From Sedimentisphaerales bacterium (lineage in GTDB: Bacteria > Planctomycetota > Phycisphaerae > Sedimentisphaerales > Anaerobacaceae): DNA of 64,000 nt. Positions 1-61,886 of this stretch are shown in pieces. The translations under genes and the position numbers were made by a program. A model generated the notes under the pieces. That model ran no database searches. It was not told the DNA's origin and saw nothing but the letters and a program-made list of their open reading frames with translations. The stretch lies in the NCBI GenBank assembly GCA_963708075.1, contig OY970194.1:1280001-1344000 (forward strand). Direction: 5' to 3'. How positions within the stretch are numbered: the stretch's first letter is position 1; each line of letters opens with the position of its first letter.

Positions 1-208
1 ACAGTTCTTCTTGAGCGTCGTAAGGACCGCCCCAGATATACTGGAAGCCTCCCTCGCGCGATTCGTATGGGCATACATTCGTCGGATCGTCATAGTGGGT
101 TAAGAACCAAGCCTTCATAATCTTCTTCTGTTCCTCCGGCTCTGCCTCAGCGAGGTGGTCTGGGTCGAATCTCGGGGCGTCATCTTCGAAAAAGGACATC
201 TGTGACAT
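1..208 (-). CDS. Partial gene running off the window; N-terminus resembles HEPN/RES N-terminal domain 1 (HEPN_RES_NTD1)
   Basis: Not in the ORF track. Manual translation from ATG 208 (GAGG RBS): MSQMSFFEDD...KAWFLTHYDDPTNVCPYESREGGFQYIWGGPYDAQEEL; the PYESREGG-x-QYIWGGPYDA motif recalls this domain. Confidence 0.7.
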   Translation of the reverse strand, partial: MSQMSFFEDDAPRFDPDHLAEAEPEEQKKIMKAWFLTHYDDPTNVCPYESREGGFQYIWGGPYDAQEEL

Positions 209-295
209 ATCTTCCTCTTTCAGTTCTCTGGATATGAGATCAGTTTATAGCCGGCACCCCGGCATAGTCATGTAGCGGGCAGGTCCTCATTGTGC

Positions 296-1062
296 TCATG
301 CGGCGACCTCATCCATGAAGTGTCTAATGCCTTTGAGCATTTGCTCCACATCCGTACGACTGAACTGGTCAAACTGACCGTGTGCTGCGTTGTTACGTAT
401 GTCTGCCAGTACAGTTGCTTGGCCTTCAACTGGTTGTAGACGCCAGCTTTCTTGAGGTCATCAATCATCACATTCATCTTCTTGTTCTCGCCATTTTCCT
501 TCACGGTTGGTATGGACGGGTTTTGTCCCTTGCACAAGTCTCTCAGTATCTTTTCAAGTACCGCCCCGGCGAGCACGGCTCCGGGCACGTGGTCAAATTC
601 GCCCTGTTGCCCTTCAGACAAGAGGCGTTCGGCCTGTCCCATATAGTCTGCCGCAAATTCTCTCTCAATTTGGCCGATCAAATCACCAAGGAAGCCATTT
701 TCATAATCTGCTCTAAGGCCCTTTAGAGTGCCTATCCCCCAATCGAAGTGCCCAGGACAAATGCGAATATTCCGAAAGCCCTCAACATCATTCCTATGGG
801 CACTTTCCGCGGGGAGGATCTGATCTAAGAGCGATGCACAGGAGGTGCGCCAAGCCATAAAGGGTTGGGGAGCAAGTTCGTAATGGTCTGGTAGTCTCTG
901 CCGGGGACCAAGTCCGCCAAATGAGTCGTATTGGGTGTGGATAAAACTCTCACGATAACCACCCGGAACGGTGCGCATCTGTTGATAAAGGGTCTCTCCC
1001 TGTGCTATGAGTTCGTCGAATCGAGCTAAGTGTTTTTTTCTCAACTCAAGTGGAAGCAGCAT
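296..1062 (-). CDS. HEPN (DUF4145-like) domain protein, frameshifted at ~406
   Basis: ORF 268..1086 gives AVLAGAVLEKILRDLC...LKKAGVYNQLKAKQLYW. The adjacent frame continues ADIRNNAAHGQFDQFSRTDVEQMLKGIRHFMDEVAA* (HEPN RxxxxH motif, stop at 296-298). Confidence 0.75.
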
Positions 1063-1443
1063 TTTATGGTCCTCACCAGCCTTCAACGAGCAGCTCTTGA
1101 ACTGACGCCATTATACCCTCTAGTCGTGTACGCTAATCACAGGATTTGAGTGAATTGTCGGCTCTGCGCTGCAAGTGGCTGTAATCTAAAGAAAGGGGAC
1201 GGTGTCAGGTGTCTATTCGGAAGACCACTGGGCTGTAATTCCGGGGACATCCATGAGCAAGCCGTTGTCAGGCGTGCCCTGGGCTTGTCGAAGGGACGGT
1301 CGCGGGATTCTTTCGCGGGAGTCCCACACATCTATTCGGTGTCGCCCGACTAAAGACTCGGGGACGTGAGTCTCCGGGCCGCAGAGAGTTGCCAATGTTG
1401 TCGGGGCGTGGTCGGAAAGCGGTGGCGGCCTGCATGGCTCTTT

Positions 1444-1545
1444 GTAGGGTGAGCGTCCGCGCTCGCCCATTCTGAGGATTCACCACGGACCAGATGAGGT
1501 GCAAGGGCCACAGGCAACGGGGACGAGCGGGGACGCTCGTCCTAC
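1444..1545. repeat. Inverted pair of GTAG-type REP hairpins
   Basis: GTAG-GGTGAGCG-TCCG-CGCTCGCCC at 1444-1468; on the minus strand GTAG-GACGAGCG-TCCC-CGCTCGTCCC at 1520-1545. Confidence 0.75.
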
Positions 1546-1880
1546 GCGGAGATCGGAATCCGCCACCGAAGGCCGGCCGCAGCCTTTTGTCACTACTTGA
1601 CAAAAGTCATGGAACATTTTGCCTGCATGGAACGTCTTTAATACATGGTGAGATGACCATGTCTCATTGGGCGCAGCGACGCCCGGGCCGGCCCGGCGGC
1701 CACGGTCAATCGTATATCACGAATCGTTAATCGTAGATGTCCTGAGGGAACGTGAAATCCCAGCCGGCCGGCGGCATAGGTTCGATGCCCACTGCTGTCA
1801 AGCAAGGCCAGTCGCCGATATCCCGGAAAGTCTATAGGCAAGCTTCGCTTGACGATGCCGCCCCGTGGGGGGCAGCTATT

Positions 1881-2463
1881 GCGCCAAACAAAGCCAATTG
1901 GAGCAGCCTGGGTCCGTTTGTAGTGTGCCCGTAAGGGCATCAAGGGAAGAAACGCCTTACGGCGTCACTACGAACGAGGATGTGAAACAAAGCCAATTCG
2001 TGATGGAGGAAGGTGGGCCCTTGGGATTGCGGATTGCGGTTGAAGGACGGAAGACTGTCTCGTCGGGCTACGCAATGACAGCACAGGCGAATATGCGAAA
2101 CAAAGCCAAATTCGGGAGATATGGGGTATCTGGGGAAGAATCGGTATCGTGTCTGGCACGGGGCGGAATGTGCGAAACAAAGCCAATATGGCCTTGCCGA
2201 GCGGGCTACAGGCGGTGTGCAAAACAAAGCCAATTTGGGGCCGGGGGCCCTTGGATTGCGGATTTCGGAATGCGGATTGAAGACGAGGACCGCGGTTGCA
2301 GTGATGCCCTCGTGCGGCGTGCGGAACAAAGCCAATCCGGGGGAAGGAGTATCGAGTCTGAAGTGTGAAGTGTCAAATAGCACCCCCGCCCGCAGGGGTG
2401 ATCCCAGCCGAGGGCGGCTGGGCCACATGGTGGCTGACTCGACGTGCCGAACAAAGCCAATTT
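1881..2463 (+). repeat. Array of 7 (A/G)AACAAAGCCAA core repeats with variable modular spacers (not CRISPR)
   Basis: Cores start at 1886, 1985, 2098, 2175, 2222, 2324, 2449; extended consensus RTGCG-AAACAAAGCCAA-TTY. Confidence 0.9.
1920..1971. repeat. GTAG-type REP doublet inside the first array spacer
   Basis: GTAGTGTGCCC-GTAA-GGGCAT ... ACGCC-TTAC-GGCGTCACTAC; near-identical inverted copy at 53762-53812. Confidence 0.8.
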
Positions 2464-2519: not shown

Positions 2520-3446
2520 CTATTGCAGGTAGTTCAGGATGCCGGCGGCTATGGCTTGGGCCAGGCGGGTTTGAAAGGTGTTGTCCTGGAGGCGGCGGGC
2601 GTCCAGGGGGTTGGAGAGGTAGCCCGTTTCGATGAGGATGGCGGGACAGCTTGTCAGCACGAGGACTTTGTAGTCGGCTTCGCGGATGCCGCGGGTGTCT
2701 GAACCCGTGCCGGCCATCTTCGCGCTGACGGCCCGGGCCGCCTCGTAGGCATCGCGCGACGCGTCCCTGGCCACATACAGAGTGAAGCCGCTGATGCTGC
2801 GGTCGGGGACCGAATCGGCGTGGATGCTCACGAACAGATCGGTGTCACGGCGGTTGGCGATCTCCGCCCGTTCTTCCAGTTCGATGAAGCGGTCGTCCTG
2901 CCGGGTCATGACCACGTTGATGCCCTGTTGCGCCAGCAACGCCGCGACCTTTGTGGCCACCTGCAGAGTGATGTGCTTCTCATAGCGCCCGGCGACCATG
3001 GAGCCAGGGTCTTTTCCGCCGTGACCCGCGTCAACGACGACAATGGCAGTGCCGGGCTTGGGGCGAGGGCGTGCCGCCACAGGCGGCTGCTCCGGTCCAG
3101 GGATGCGCAGGTACGGCTGGATCGTCGCGACGAGCGTCTCGGGAACGTAAACGGTAGTGCCGACCCTGCGAGTCTCGCCGACGGGGCCGATGGCCTTGCC
3201 GTTCACGAAGAACCGTCCATCCGCTTGTATGAAGATCAGCACGGTATTGGCGGCGTTCTTGAGGACAACGAACGTCTCGGCCCGCTCCTGGATACGAAGT
3301 CTCAGCCGGGCGGCCAGCTCATCGATGGTGACGGTCTGCTCCTTGACGGTCACGCTGACCGCAGGCCGCTGCTGCGGCTGCTGGCAGCCACCGACCGCCA
3401 GGACCACACCCGTAAGAATGGTGAGCAGTCTGGTTCTTGAACTCAT
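2520..3446 (-). CDS. N-acetylmuramoyl-L-alanine amidase (Amidase_3), lipoprotein
   Basis: Lipobox-like VGGC; motifs VVDAGHGGKDPG, EK, FVSIHAD, PAILIETGYLSN. Confidence 0.92.
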   Translation of the reverse strand: MSSRTRLLTILTGVVLAVGGCQQPQQRPAVSVTVKEQTVTIDELAARLRLRIQERAETFVVLKNAANTVLIFIQADGRFFVNGKAIGPVGETRRVGTTVYVPETLVATIQPYLRIPGPEQPPVAARPRPKPGTAIVVVDAGHGGKDPGSMVAGRYEKHITLQVATKVAALLAQQGINVVMTRQDDRFIELEERAEIANRRDTDLFVSIHADSVPDRSISGFTLYVARDASRDAYEAARAVSAKMAGTGSDTRGIREADYKVLVLTSCPAILIETGYLSNPLDARRLQDNTFQTRLAQAIAAGILNYLQ

Positions 3447-50185: not shown

Positions 50186-50731
50186 ATGCTTAAGTTCATT
50201 ACTGACAAGCAAATATATGAAGAGGTCGTCTGTGCGATGATTCCCAGGGCCAAGCGGATGCTCTGGCTGGCTACCGCTGATCTTAAGGACCTCCACGTGC
50301 ACAAGCACGGCAGAATGGTCCCTTTTCTGGAGGTTCTGTCGGACCTGGTTCGCGGCAACGTGGAAATCCGGCTGCTTCACGCCAAGGAGCCCGGACCGAT
50401 CTTCCGCAGGGATTTCGACAAGTATCCGAGCCTCGCGAAAGGGCTGGAGCGGATGCTCTGCCCTCGGGTCCACATCAAGTGCGCCGTGGTGGATGGCGAA
50501 TGTGCCTATGCCGGCAGCGCCAATCTGACGGGAGCAGGCATCGGGGCCAAGAGCGATCGCCGGCGCAATTTCGAATCAGGGATCGTAACGACCGATCCGG
50601 CTGTCATCGGCCTGATCATGGAGCAATTCGATGGAATCTGGAGGGGGTCACACTGCCGGGAATGCGACAGAAAGGAATTCTGTGATGAGCACGCAGGTAT
50701 CTTGTCCACCCGGAGAGGAGAAAACGCGTAG
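50186..50731 (+). CDS. Single-domain phospholipase D-like (HKD) protein
   Basis: HIKCAVVD..GSANLT..NFESG; C-terminal CRECDRKEFC. Confidence 0.85.
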   Translation: MLKFITDKQIYEEVVCAMIPRAKRMLWLATADLKDLHVHKHGRMVPFLEVLSDLVRGNVEIRLLHAKEPGPIFRRDFDKYPSLAKGLERMLCPRVHIKCAVVDGECAYAGSANLTGAGIGAKSDRRRNFESGIVTTDPAVIGLIMEQFDGIWRGSHCRECDRKEFCDEHAGILSTRRGENA

Positions 50732-51239
50732 TGAAGCTCAGGGCCGGGTCAAATGCTATGGCTACCTGGACATAGAGACAACGGGCCTCAGTCGTAGCTA
50801 CTGCGATCTCACGGTAGTAGGGGTGGCGGTAATGCGCGGAGCACAACAGCAGTTCATGCAGCTTTATGGCGATCAGATCAACGCCGAGGCTGTGCTGGGC
50901 CTGCTGGAGGGTGTGGATGAGTTCTATACGTACAACGGCAGCCGGTTCGATCTGCCCTTCCTCCAGCAGAGGCTGGGCCTGGACATACGCCGCAAGTACG
51001 CACATACGGACCTGATGTACAAGTGCTGGCTCAAGAACCTCAAGGGCGGCCTGAAAGTCGTCGAGGCGCGCCTGGGCATAGAGCGGCGGCTCCAGGACAT
51101 GAATGGACTCATGGCGGTTCGCCTGTGGTGGGAATATGTCAACAACAATGATATCCAGGCCCTGCGGACGCTGCTGGAGTACAATAAAGAGGACGTTGTC
51201 AACCTCCATGTTCTGCGGGAGAAACTTGGCGTGAAGTAG
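50685..51239 (+). CDS. RNase_H_2 / YprB-like DEDD exonuclease
   Basis: YLDIETTGL, TYNGSRFDLPFL, GGLKVVE, YNKEDV. Confidence 0.88.
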   Translation: MSTQVSCPPGEEKTRSEAQGRVKCYGYLDIETTGLSRSYCDLTVVGVAVMRGAQQQFMQLYGDQINAEAVLGLLEGVDEFYTYNGSRFDLPFLQQRLGLDIRRKYAHTDLMYKCWLKNLKGGLKVVEARLGIERRLQDMNGLMAVRLWWEYVNNNDIQALRTLLEYNKEDVVNLHVLREKLGVK

Positions 51240-52277: not shown

Positions 52278-53113
52278 GAATTGGCTTTGTTTTGCACAGC
52301 CGGCTCTTTGGCAGGACCGCCCGGCTTGCTGGTTCGATCTTTCCCAAATGCCCCACACGTCCCAAGTTTGGCTTTGTTCCGCATGGCGTGGCGGGCCTCC
52401 AGATTGCCCCATGCAAATTGGCTTTGTTTCACACCCCATGCCTCCCGGCCATTCGGTAGGGTGGGCTCTGCCCACCGCGGGTCCATCGGCGGGAATTGGC
52501 TTCGTTTCTGACCCGGTTCCAACGCATCACTTCTCTCGTAACCTCCTTTCAGGTCAATAGTTAGCGTCGCCACGACCGTCCATTGAATTGGCTTTGTTTG
52601 TCACAGTGGCTCTCACGTTCTTCAATCCGCATTCTGCAATCCGAAATCCGCAACCCCGGGGCTCCTGCCCCGAAATTGGCTTTGTTTGGCAGGGCCGGTC
52701 GTCGCTCCGGGCCGTCTCTGACCGCCTGTTCTCCACATATCACATGTCCCCCAAATTTGGCTTTGTTTCGCACAGTCGCCTCCTGTCGAACCGTCCCGCA
52801 TGCAATACCAATTCTCCCCCAAATATCCCATCCATCCCAGGTTTGGCTTTGTTTTGCGCAACAAGCCGCGCTCGTAGTGACGCCGTAAGGCGTTCGTGGC
52901 GAGGGCCCTTGTCTTCCTCCTATGGAGATTGGCTTTGTTTCGCATCATCGACCAATCAAGCATAACCCCTTTCTCACATAGGATTTCGGCTGATTCCGGT
53001 CCATGTGAATTGGCTTTGTTTCGCACAGCGTACTCCTTGCCTTCAATTCGCATTCCGCAATCCGAAATCCGCAATCGCAGGGCCCTTGGCCCCGAATTGG
53101 CTTTGTTTCGCAT
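52278..53113 (-). repeat. Array of 11 AAACAAAGCCAA core repeats (read TTGGCTTTGTTT on +) with modular spacers (not CRISPR)
   Basis: Cores start on + at 52281, 52368, 52418, 52496 (variant TTGGCTTCGTTT), 52588, 52676, 52757, 52843, 52929, 53010, 53097. Confidence 0.92.
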
Positions 53114-53169: not shown

Positions 53170-53568
53170 GGGTGTGGTCGGAATTCGGTGGCGGCGTGTA
53201 GCTGCCGTGTGCGGACCGGGCCTCTTTCGTCCCTTACGGGACTGGCTTCTATCCTTGACCTCGGTTTCCCAGCGATGAATCGCTGGGCTATTCTCTATCG
53301 CCCTCCGGGCTTGGACGGCACCCGGACGGATCGATCACCATCCCGCAGGTGTTGCAGCTACTCTCTATCGCCCTGCGGGCGTGGACTGCGCTCCAGTCCT
53401 CTTGCGTCGGTCCATCCGCCCCACAGGGGCGATCGACAATAGCCCACCGTTTCAACGGTGGGTACCGATAGCCAATCCTATCCCAGAGCCCCGCAGGGGC
53501 GAAAGAAGACTGGGGGCGCTCCTTTGTCCGGCGGAATCGGAATCCGCCACCGAATGCCGACCGCACCC
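53170..53568. repeat. Nested inverted-repeat composite element (MITE/REP-like)
   Basis: 53170-53194 is the inverse of 53544-53568 (23/25). The triple-hairpin unit 53224-53310 is the inverse of 53418-53505. Confidence 0.75.
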
Positions 53569-53761
53569 GACCTTCGGAATCTTTGATTTTTGATGTTTGA
53601 TTTTTGACTTGCCCATGGCTCATACGGGCGTGCCCACAGATCGGCGATACTTGGTCGTAGGACCATATACTAGAGACGCTCGCCGAGCCGGATTGTTCCA
53701 GGAATTTCTGTTGAATAGTGAAATACTTCAGACCTTTTTGCGGTCCTGACCCCGTCTGTTT

Positions 53762-57712: not shown

Positions 57713-57952
57713 TCATGGTCTATGCGCTCGGGTCCGACGTTGGCTGTCAGAGGACAAGAGCTTCTTGCGAGTTTTCGGGCCGACCTTTTCGGGCACGACG
57801 GTCTCGGCACACAACGGAGCGAGCAGAGGGTCGCGGAGGACCTCCTCGTGGGTCCTTTGCCGCTTTTGTGCCCAGGTCAAGGCCGCATCTTCTTCATCGA
57901 TCTGTGTTCGCCGCTGGCGCATCCATGCCACGGCGTCAAATCTCTTCTTCAT
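57713..57952 (-). CDS. Small protein, putative antitoxin partner of the PIN gene
   Basis: MKKRFDAVAWMRQRR...; overlaps the PIN gene end by 17 nt. Confidence 0.6.
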   Translation of the reverse strand: MKKRFDAVAWMRQRRTQIDEEDAALTWAQKRQRTHEEVLRDPLLAPLCAETVVPEKVGPKTRKKLLSSDSQRRTRAHRP

Positions 57953-58406
57953 TGAGCAGCATCTCCTTTGGAGAGCGGATTTCTATCGGCCGATAGCCCT
58001 TCTCCATGCTTACGGCATTGAACAACCGTATTCTACCAAGATTGACGATGTGTTTGAAGTTCCAACTCACCAGGACATCACACTCGCTCACCACGGCCAG
58101 AGCTACGTGCAGGCAATCCGCACGGCTTCCGGGCCCGACGATCCGGTGTTCCAGATAGGCTTCTGCCAAGGCGTAGGCTTCGTCGTTATCCGCCAGGAGG
58201 ATCCGGTGCTCTTGCGGTACTTCCGGCGGTCGTCTACGGACCCGTTCGGGGGCACCCGCCAATTCGCGGAGCGTGTGTTCGGACAGAACCATCACATATC
58301 GGCCTTCGATGAAAAGCCGCCACAAGGTCAGACTGTCTTCGGCAAACTCGACATCGTCACAACCGCCGACGACAGAGGCATCGACATAGACCAGCATCTT
58401 CTTCAT
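57936..58406 (-). CDS. PIN domain protein (VapC-like toxin)
   Basis: C-terminal part of track ORF 57936..59216, from ATG 58406: VYVDASV, RELAGAP, DCLHVA, SWNFKHIVN. Confidence 0.85.
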   Translation of the reverse strand: MKKMLVYVDASVVGGCDDVEFAEDSLTLWRLFIEGRYVMVLSEHTLRELAGAPERVRRRPPEVPQEHRILLADNDEAYALAEAYLEHRIVGPGSRADCLHVALAVVSECDVLVSWNFKHIVNLGRIRLFNAVSMEKGYRPIEIRSPKEMLLNEEEI

Positions 58407-60728: not shown

Positions 60729-61886
60729 TCACACCATCGCTTTGCTGAGTATTTCAAGGAGTTCGTCGTCGCGCAGCTCGATGGGATTGCCCTTCATGCT
60801 ACTGGCCTTCTTTGCCTGGGCGACGACGGCAGGCAGGTCTTCCCTTCGCAAGCCGTACTCGCTCAATCCGGGCAGGCCGAACCCAGCGCATAACTCCTGA
60901 ATCCAGGAGACAGCGTCGGACGCCTGGGCGGCGGGTTTGCCGGTCAGGATTCTCGCGGCCTCATCGAAGCGGGCCCGGGCCGGTGAGTCGAAGGATCGGG
61001 ACTGCAAGGCCCATACGTTCGCCTCAATGACGTAGGGCAGAAGCTTGCCGCAGATAACGCCGTGGGGCGCATTTGTCATGCCTCCCAGTGGGCCTGCAAA
61101 CCCGTGCACGGCGCCGAGGGCAGCGTTGGCCAGTGCAAGACCGCTGAAGAGACTGGCTATTGCCATATCCTCGCGCGCCTGGGCATCGTTCCCATCCCGG
61201 AACGCACGTTGCAGGGACCGGCCGATCCGTTGCAGGCCCTCGCGGCAGACGCCGTCTGTCATCGGATTGGCTTTGTTTGAAACGAATGGCTCGATGAGTT
61301 GAGTGAGGGCATCCAAGCCGGTGCTGGCGGTCAGCTTCGGCGGCATGGAATGGGTCAGCAGCGGATCGACCAGGGCCACCCGGGGCAGCAGAAGGGGGCT
61401 TCGCATGCTGACTTTTACCCGGTGCTCGGGGACAAGGAGGACCGCGTTGCGCGTGACCTCGGCCCCCGTTCCCGCCGTCGTCGGCACAGCGATGTACGGG
61501 ACCGGCTCGCCCTGCAGAGGTTTACCCTTGCCGACGACCTCAAGATAATCGAGCAGTTCCCCCTCGTTTTTCAGCATGGCAGCAACGACCTTGCCTGTAT
61601 CGATGACGCTGCCGCCGCCGATGGCGATCACGACCTGGCTCTGGGCCCATCGCGCCGACACGACAGCCGCCTGGGCCATCTCCGTCGTGGGTTCCCCGAC
61701 GACATGGAAGACTTCGGGCACGACCGCCACGCAAGCAAGTTGATCGAGGATTCGACCGAAGCGGTGCGGATCGCTCCCCAGCATGAGGAACACCCGGTTG
61801 CCAAACGCGACGGCTATCTCGGCCAACTGGTCTGCGGCACCCGGGCCAAAGATGATCCTGTCGGCAGTAGAGAATTCGAATCTCAT
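60729..61886 (-). CDS. Iron-containing alcohol dehydrogenase
   Basis: GGGSVIDTGK, PTTAGTGAEVT, LGAVHG, PHG. Confidence 0.93.
   Translation of the reverse strand: MRFEFSTADRIIFGPGAADQLAEIAVAFGNRVFLMLGSDPHRFGRILDQLACVAVVPEVFHVVGEPTTEMAQAAVVSARWAQSQVVIAIGGGSVIDTGKVVAAMLKNEGELLDYLEVVGKGKPLQGEPVPYIAVPTTAGTGAEVTRNAVLLVPEHRVKVSMRSPLLLPRVALVDPLLTHSMPPKLTASTGLDALTQLIEPFVSNKANPMTDGVCREGLQRIGRSLQRAFRDGNDAQAREDMAIASLFSGLALANAALGAVHGFAGPLGGMTNAPHGVICGKLLPYVIEANVWALQSRSFDSPARARFDEAARILTGKPAAQASDAVSWIQELCAGFGLPGLSEYGLRREDLPAVVAQAKKASSMKGNPIELRDDELLEILSKAMV

Follow-up and report, generated by a model that had tools for sequence, protein, structure and literature searches.

Locus and array

The window, by which we mean the whole 64-kb stretch of DNA analysed here, derives from a genome assembled as one contig (7.5 Mb, 60% GC, 92.8% complete), and near its left end a leader and a seven-core array lie between two accessory genes and a host amidase gene (Table 1). 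The seven cores were found on one strand at positions and spacings (99, 113, 77, 47, 102 and 125 nt) identical to those in an earlier note made from the DNA letters alone; five are exact, and the last two carry G in place of the first A. At up to one mismatch the window holds 19 core matches against 0.08 expected (100 shuffles, maximum 1), seven of them in this array, 11 on the minus strand at 52281-53108 and one in a coding gene at 61267. The extended form RTGCG-core-TTY that the note had proposed is approximately right for this genome's arrays, whose consensus (in percent) reads T80 G92 C75 G81 A95 before the core and T89 T72 after it. The note knew of no described function for the repeat. 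Rfam, with its CRISPR repeat families, gave no match over the array.

The note had also seen no cas, reverse transcriptase (RT) or transposase gene nearby and had set CRISPR aside, and wider searches agreed with it: Cas1 (PF01867) is absent from the genome, with the control positive in 7 of 14 genomes; none of the genome's 13 Y1-transposase and four tyrosine-recombinase matches lies inside the window; the sole RT match is about 90 kb off; and the periods are irregular and the spacers recurrent. A lone core about 0.5 kb past that single RT match is all that ties it to the arrays, and the link was dropped. The RT itself, a solitary 519-aa protein (L152:4260-5816; G000:C1 about 1191260-1192815), sits among small hypothetical genes just upstream of an apparent rRNA operon and is perhaps of the defence type.

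Table 1. Features around the seven-core array and the second array, in window coordinates
Feature	Position	Strand	Remark
Second accessory gene (306 aa), 5' part	1..208	-	phosphomannose isomerase gene next, outside window
272-aa accessory gene upstream of leader	268..1086	-	no Pfam or PADLOC match
REP-like pair (1444-1545) and dispersed repeat (1556-1584)	1444..1584	.	where other copies carry palindromic D site
Leader homologous to gene-copy leaders	1585..1745	+	nhmmer, model positions 47-206, E 9e-21
Short leader hairpin	1645..1660	+	same position as hairpin in other leaders
RBS-like site and GTG start of 60-aa ORF (1752-1934)	1744..1934	+	~180-aa domain absent (no tblastn match)
REP-like palindrome just ahead of core 1	1837..1864	+	family with over 300 genome matches
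Seven-core array, six units between	1886..2460	+	core starts 1886, 1985, 2098, 2175, 2222, 2324, 2449
Unit 1: inverted pair of GTAG-type REP-like sequences	1920..1971	+	blast test
Unit 2: heptamer repeats of commonest unit family	2024..2035	+	assigned from motif
Unit 3: purine-rich unit family	2114..2135	+	also in window's second array
Unit 5: heptamer-repeat unit	2234..2323	+	16 related units in other arrays
Unit 6: heptamer repeats and palindrome 2400-2422	2336..2448	+	5 related units in other arrays
Host N-acetylmuramoyl-L-alanine amidase gene	2520..3446	-	end ~60 nt past last core
Second gene-less array, same family	52281..53108	-	11 cores, two D-site units
Leader of second array	53570..53729	-	E 2.5e-25

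Around the second array, two inverted Rfam Acido-Lenti-1 matches occupy the leader region (53268-53311, plus strand, and 53417-53462, minus strand), and an insert similar to this pair lies inside a unit of another array. Downstream of it, at 50186-51239, overlapping genes for PLD-like and RNase H-like nucleases stand beside a ketopantoate reductase gene; upstream, in a lower-GC stretch at 54-58 kb, a PIN-like toxin and small antitoxin pair, recognised by eye, follows a MutS2 gene (57765-58400).

A leader-gene-array element

A genome-wide scan with a slightly relaxed core, a check that the note had called for, gave 299 matches, which make up 41 single-orientation arrays of 2-13 cores and 29 singletons; the repeat is 12-20 nt long and its periods run from about 33 to over 300 nt. 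One gene, in eight intact copies and a frameshifted one, precedes nine of the arrays; every one of its nine loci is followed by an array, and the other 32 arrays are gene-less. Strand relative to replication is mixed, 22 of the 32 gene-less arrays being lagging and six of the nine gene-bearing ones leading. The layout of the element is a palindromic D site, a promoter and leader, a gene for a helical protein of about 180 aa, and one to many cores, and the leader itself consists of a promoter-like stretch, a hairpin, a heptamer stretch and an RBS. The array at 1886-2460 does not stand alone: it forms the 3' end of such an element, made up of leader, gene and array, from which the gene has been lost at this locus. 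The leader, the recurring spacer families and the gene family were absent from the note. Its readings that the array is not CRISPR and that the ORFs over it are by-products were supported, and protein binding or a site-specific process, among the functions it offered, fits best.

The leader model was built from six gene-copy leaders, the remaining three gene copies carrying a different one, and in nhmmer searches of the genome it matched 12 of the 32 gene-less arrays in addition to its six source copies. A consensus promoter scan found no plus-strand promoter in the leader at 1585-1745; leaders of one clade have near-consensus sigma-70 promoters, as read from their sequences. Judged by its position, the GTG at 1752 would be the place where the element's gene begins, and in several gene-less arrays the decayed first 10-30 codons of the gene can be seen by eye ahead of the first core. 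Because the gene's leader is kept and the gene is absent, the array at 1886-2460 is very probably a gene-less derivative of a gene-bearing element. The dispersed repeat ahead of its leader (1556-1584) also occurs behind the last core of several gene-bearing copies. Searches of the open-licence PMC and bioRxiv literature gave no description of the element (supplements, outside that scope, could list such repeats), which is apparently undescribed.

Phylogenetic profiling, likewise suggested in the note, found this gene to co-occur with the core. Of 80 homologue loci in other genomes, 62 have the core downstream of the gene, and none has a match in the 1.5 kb upstream; there are 137 same-strand matches, of which 57 fall within the ORF and 80 past the stop codon, in all three frames, and 12 opposite-strand matches. 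Among 151 genomes of the class, all nine with at least eight cores carry the gene and the 132 gene-less genomes hold at most four cores (the loci and genomes compared are kin, so these counts are not independent); 10 of the 19 gene-bearing genomes also have at most four cores of the searched form. A gene match is present in 17 of 18 relatives within the genus, with exact-core counts of 0 to 305, a spread that arises partly because some lineages use a variant core. An exception is the relative G156, where 15 cores go with a gene match of just 23 residues in an assembly of 1450 contigs. A core-derived peptide was present in only 25 of 115 more distant homologues, and so the tie may not cover the whole family. 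In the clade of loci L129-L148 (genomes G154, G158, G160, G164 and G165), the direct array is replaced by a variable repeat region between two cores, an inverted one at about +630 and a direct one 120-400 nt farther on.

The core is, as these comparisons indicate, a nucleotide signal tied to the gene, since it is read in all three frames, is found downstream of the gene at 62 of the 80 loci and upstream at none, and reaches eight or more copies only with it. It is near-invariant across the 41 arrays while the units diverge, and we think it rather probable that it serves as a site that the element's own protein would bind.

The protein family and its phage-like module

The gene product has a conserved domain of about 180 aa, which is predicted to be all-helical (pLDDT 87) with long antiparallel helices. 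Invariant residues are an N-terminal NxxNxxKSTGP...N motif together with E48, P66, W83, R84 and R87, and H36 and Y155 are invariant or nearly so, H36 being the only histidine of this kind. The domain has no match in Pfam, NCBIfam or PHROGs, even at E ≤ 1, and a scan of 49 family members gave only scattered weak matches, each in a single member; no solved relative was found by sequence (best E 0.57), and Foldseek searches of the PDB and of viral models gave nothing at E ≤ 0.001. A VIA fold search returned generic coiled coils (best Z 8.3, rmsd 4.8, 101 aligned), the N-terminal half gave only generic helical matches (best Z 5.4), and the ESM Atlas offered only unnamed clusters at 0.96-0.97, with named ones below 0.8; such empty family and fold searches do not demonstrate a new fold. 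A homodimer prediction scored 0.02 and counts for neither side.

The family is large. A profile search reached 46,167 clusters at 50% identity with E ≤ 0.001 (30,179 with E ≤ 1e-10), some of which may share with it just the N-terminal module, and homologue records come from Planctomycetota, Acidobacteriota, proteobacteria and actinobacteria, with the nearest loci in Phycisphaerae or Sedimentisphaerales. One genome can hold up to about 20 dispersed gene matches, and within a genome the copies share only about 72-96% identity, which sets them apart from IS copies that have moved recently. At 36 gene loci, 103 neighbouring ORFs were scanned of 131 listed, and they proved to be unrelated genes with no conserved partner and no terminase, integrase, cas or RT among them; one IS66 and one Y1 transposase were present. 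A subfamily (P0285-P0370) ends in a conserved PPP-x-A-x-DVDVSG-like peptide, found by regular expression in 32 of 374 proteins, and mostly lacks core-derived peptides.

The 43 N-terminal columns of the protein match a module of phage proteins (hhalign 99.4%), and nothing aligns beyond them. Eleven of 17 viral loci code for a protein that has this module, and nothing else, in common with the element's protein, and at the one viral locus tested, genes for the terminase large subunit (TerL) and portal stand next to it. One phage module protein passes Pfam Terminase_4 and three match below the cut-off; the putative large subunits beside the phage module proteins went unrecognised by Pfam, and a plasmid match carries the annotation HGGxSTG-domain protein. 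The element's protein matched no phage record, none of 49 family members has a Terminase_4 match, and the genome has no Terminase_6N match. The phage small-terminase-like proteins of loci L117-L127 have a conserved C-x3-C-x4-C...C cluster between the STGP module and the Terminase_4-like part, and these proteins match only the unannotated PHROG 26872. From the match to proteins that are small terminase subunits (TerS) by position, we infer that the 43-column module may bind DNA. As described in sections of PMC4856287, TerS combines a domain for DNA binding with an antiparallel coiled coil and a beta extension at the C-terminus; the lambda protein attaches to repeated sites that lie around an IHF bend, cosB being R3-I1-R2. 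It is plausible, because of the module shared with phage small terminases and the organisation of TerS, that the protein would bind the cores and synapse them.

Units and the D site

Relatives in other arrays were found for 147 of the 246 core-to-core units in the genome, and 87% of the 1082 alignments between related units start in register with the core (within 5 nt). Of 66 full-length unit pairs between arrays, 23 have a neighbouring unit in common as well and the other 43 have none; within-array duplication affects 16 units. GTAG-type REP-like palindromes and heptamer repeats occur in the units, for the most part in a fixed orientation, and GTAG repeats are known from Planctomycetes (PMC3733652, in part). 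In the array at 1886-2460 the blast test found relatives for three of the six units; unit 1 has related units in two other arrays and 41 matches outside arrays, and unit 2 has no full-length relative that passes the test. A metagenome scan added 87 array loci. Between orthologous arrays with similar flanks (17 pairs sharing the downstream host gene, one of which proved not to be orthologous), the number of units differed, for example 14 against 10, 7 against 4, 0 against 6 and 12 against 5, as did unit content, and near-identical strain pairs (98-100%) had the same cores. Core-bounded units thus recur in register and turn over.

The D site is a palindrome, TAA-N4-TTK-N5-CAA-N4-TTA, whose start lies 33-35 nt after a core and, as a rule, 56-57 nt before the next, a spacing seen at 18 sites of this genome and at loci of other genomes. 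It also lies upstream of many leaders (perfect in only 5 of 73 loci) and is absent from the array at 1886-2460. Compared with the IHF consensus WATCARNNNNTTR (PMC9820253, in the part available), 17 right and 16 left arms of the 18 sites have 3-4 mismatches of 9, where about 9% of random positions have four or fewer and the choice of D sites for AA/TT biases the comparison. Three IHF/HU-family genes are present in the genome, all below NCBIfam cut-offs. About 90 D-like sites lie away from arrays, and one of these (G000:C1:5191650) is no more than about 70 nt from the minimum of the cumulative GC skew, where the replication origin is likely to be. Because of these sites, including the one beside the skew minimum, D is probably the site of a host architectural protein. 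A reading of D as a tyrosine-recombinase core was set aside, as no such gene is near and D-like sites occur genome-wide.

Polarity and the insertion hotspot

The 80 nt past the last core match interior units in only four of 41 arrays, against 163 of 246 for interior units, and the last core of gene-less arrays acts like a right-hand boundary; in seven related copies the shared sequence runs on for about 150 nt past it. In 35 of 39 arrays (p 5e-9, two overlapping neighbours left out), composition is more unusual in the 2 kb ahead of the leader than in the 2 kb on the downstream side, and the effect fades within about 2 kb and is gone beyond. No such bias was seen with two REP controls, with one heptamer control or with gene starts that follow long gaps (control counts 142/299, 62/165, 73/129 and 624/1174), and another heptamer control is also asymmetric, more weakly (67/97). 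When 37 arrays of relatives (those with enough flank, 11 near-duplicates removed) were compared with this genome, the right flank alone was shared in 22, the left alone in one, both in five and neither in nine. At 20 arrays, Pfam matched 21 of 29 ORFs on the downstream side and 21 of 51 on the upstream side, where transposases and genes of restriction-, STAND- and TIR-like types are among them. The arrays are polar, with conserved host DNA past the last core and atypical accessory DNA upstream.

The amidase-phosphomannose isomerase gap measures 3248 nt here and contains the array, its leader and the two accessory genes, of which the 272-aa one is absent from the 11 relatives' loci examined; it is 27 nt in the relative G151 and 784-1244 nt in four other relatives, one with its own two-core unit in the opposite direction and three with core-free inserts. 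At six of these 11 loci the isomerase was not seen. The site is a hotspot with or without the element, and the core-free inserts in three of the four relatives mean that it may predate the element. Searches for an empty site resolved to the base pair, for a target duplication and for terminal inverted repeats found none of them: inspection by eye of copy ends gave no inverted repeats; at 25 relatives' loci the right flank matched this genome without a clean left junction; an exact flank search in metagenomes gave nothing; Logan contigs from four DNA runs held the locus in pieces, none spanning, with joints derived from repeats; and the search for empty sites within the genome gave only a 1.5-kb near-identical repeat. 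This repeat (1552 bp, 99.7% identical, at G000:C1:861341-862892 and 2879561-2881110) encodes a UPF0236-family ORF, is probably an IS, and is inserted about 20 nt past the last core of one array.

Interpretation

We give an even chance to the reading that this is a polar selfish element of an undescribed kind, whose core is at once the site of its own protein and a site of DNA rearrangement, and the core-directed rearrangement or mobility, taken by itself, is just as evenly balanced. The N-terminal module, common to phage small terminase subunits, would bind the core as double-stranded DNA; the long helical hairpin would oligomerise and bring cores together; and an IHF/HU-type host protein would bend the DNA at the D site and help the cores to synapse. 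Strand exchange at or beside the cores, by the protein's own chemistry or by a recruited nuclease, would then fix the right end, move and duplicate units, and bring or attract accessory genes on the loosely defined left side, and gene-less copies such as the one at 1886-2460 would be served in trans by intact ones. Against this reading stand the absence of a resolved empty site, gene copies that are not near-identical, and a protein in which no catalytic family or fold is recognisable. Only tentatively do we extend this reading to a new class of mobile element, in which the all-helical protein with its phage-terminase module would itself be the transposase or recombinase that acts on the core and builds polar, integron-like platforms for cassette shuffling, with accessory genes gathered on one side.

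The same module that suggests core binding would also suit a hijack of packaging, in which a freed small-terminase-like protein treats the cores as pac- or cosB-like sites and the large terminase of a helper phage packages the element and its upstream neighbours in one direction, to recombine into recipients partly at resident cores. The module is common to phage proteins beside TerL and portal, the small helical N-terminal part and long antiparallel helices of the model resemble the three-part TerS, core-D-core is like the R3-I1-R2 of lambda cosB (PMC4856287, in the sections cited above), and the accessory DNA is one-sided. Nevertheless, only 43 columns align and the C-terminal half does not, Terminase_6N is missing from the genome and from the 103 neighbours, the atypical stretch of about 2 kb falls far below a headful, and new insertion sites would not follow from packaging alone; we consider this reading unlikely. 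A process at the RNA level seems to us no more probable than packaging. A transcript from the leader promoter would expose unpaired, A-rich cores to the element's or a host protein as a sponge, a processing signal or a control of read-through into the next gene, in keeping with the strict single orientation of the cores, the near-consensus sigma-70 promoters of one clade, the largely unpaired state of the cores of the array at 1886-2460 in the centroid fold and the next host ORF being on the same strand at 25 of 32 gene-less arrays; but the array region has no folding advantage over shuffles (z 0.29), orthologous loci do not keep the same unit content, the array at 1886-2460 is followed by a convergent gene, and the fixed D-core spacing and the upstream accessory DNA point to a process at the DNA level.

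Passive debris, which we rate as improbable to the same degree, would need no dedicated process: decaying tails of a multicopy gene, lying in pre-existing hotspots, would collect REP and heptamer repeats that slippage or homologous recombination shuffles, with the 16-20 bp core only a microhomology. The 94 of 246 units that match repeats outside arrays, the tandem unit copies in six arrays, the core-free inserts at the hotspot in relatives and the divergence of the gene copies all agree with it, yet it sits badly with a core that is near-invariant in 41 arrays while the units diverge and that is kept downstream of homologues across phyla, often past the stop codon, and it leaves unexplained both the up to about 20 dispersed matches per genome of a solitary gene and an array polarity missing from the REP controls. 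It is far less probable still that the array at 1886-2460 encodes a real repeat protein, as ORF 1865-2368 or 2121-2702. These overlapping ORFs have no Pfam match, no plus-strand frame is open through all seven cores, the ORF from the leader's start stops just past core 1, and only 14 of 96 frames are open in the gene-less arrays, in line with the note's view that the stacked ORFs are by-products of a stop-free core. Gene-bearing copies differ in that one frame is stop-free through the array in eight of nine, against 69 stops in the 16 other frames of those eight, and seven of nine end in a related C-terminal peptide, although the frame in which the core is read changes within single proteins. 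Because the array is kept translatable in these copies, a real repeat-tailed protein probably exists at gene-bearing loci, where the array would be translated as a variable linker, and not at 1886-2460.

Returning to the polar element acting through its cores, an unexplained repeat is now tied to a large family of unannotated proteins, and with a candidate substrate the family can be tested using a single protein and a short oligonucleotide. Should the protein itself rearrange DNA, it would, judged by family and fold searches, be a recombinase or transposase that belongs to none of the DDE, HUH, serine and tyrosine families, and if the new class of mobile element is real, an unannotated family of tens of thousands of clusters would gain a function. 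Even on weaker readings, the arrays mark one-sided hotspots at which Planctomycetota gain genes, and they account for many spurious 'hypothetical proteins' that contain KQSQ, TKPI or NKAN repeats.

Comparison with known systems

The arrays differ from classical IS and MITEs, with no terminal inverted repeats or target duplication seen and copies about 72-96% identical. Passages of PMC3733652 describe REP/BIME as intergenic mosaic clusters with tandem reiteration of units together with flanking DNA, and the arrays resemble REP/BIME/REPIN in their mosaic intergenic clusters and in the GTAG-type palindromes inside many units. The organising repeat here, however, is non-palindromic, directional and tied to its own leader, and the REP-like palindromes are passengers inside units; REP sites also lack polarity, and the associated gene here is not a Y1 transposase like RAYT. 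The genome has 13 Y1 matches; RAYT-like ORFs lie upstream of two of 41 arrays, with none near the array at 1886-2460. To phage TerS and lambda cosB the likeness is in the N-terminal module, the long antiparallel helices and the repeated sites that flank a possible IHF-type site, whereas the bacterial copies are many per chromosome, adjoin no TerL, portal or other phage gene, and have C-terminal halves that do not align; with regard to P27/Terminase_4-type proteins, neither a Terminase_4 domain in 49 members nor TerL among 103 neighbours was found.

A leader followed by same-strand repeats, variable spacers and fast turnover also recalls CRISPR, but the repeat is only 12-20 nt, the periods range from about 33 to over 300 nt (47-125 in the array at 1886-2460), the spacers are families of the genome's own repeats (147 of 246 units recurring elsewhere), and no cas gene stands among the 103 neighbours. 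Integron cassette arrays consist of site-delimited units, with accessory genes at a platform, palindromic attC sites and a tyrosine integrase. Units here are likewise delimited by sites and apparently gained, lost and reordered, and accessory genes gather beside them, but the delimiter is not a palindromic attC, the units hold no genes, and none of the four PF00589 matches in the genome is beside an array. As far as the text of PMC13181058 covers them, IS91/ISCR elements have one gene and unlike ends, make no target duplication and capture DNA on one side when the loose end is overrun, and the element described here shares with them the single gene and the absence of a seen target duplication, and may share the two unlike ends and the capture of DNA on one side. 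The enzyme of IS91/ISCR is an HUH (Y2/Y1) transposase, in contrast to an all-helical protein without HUH motif or family match (no Pfam or NCBIfam match at E ≤ 1, one conserved His), and arrays of repeated ends are not described for IS91/ISCR in the same portion of PMC13181058; as to the ends, the polarity fits, no junction was resolved, and the seven copies share their stretch past the last core. By analogy, the element would work somewhat like the one-ended transposition of IS91/ISCR combined with the platform of an integron, as a member of neither.
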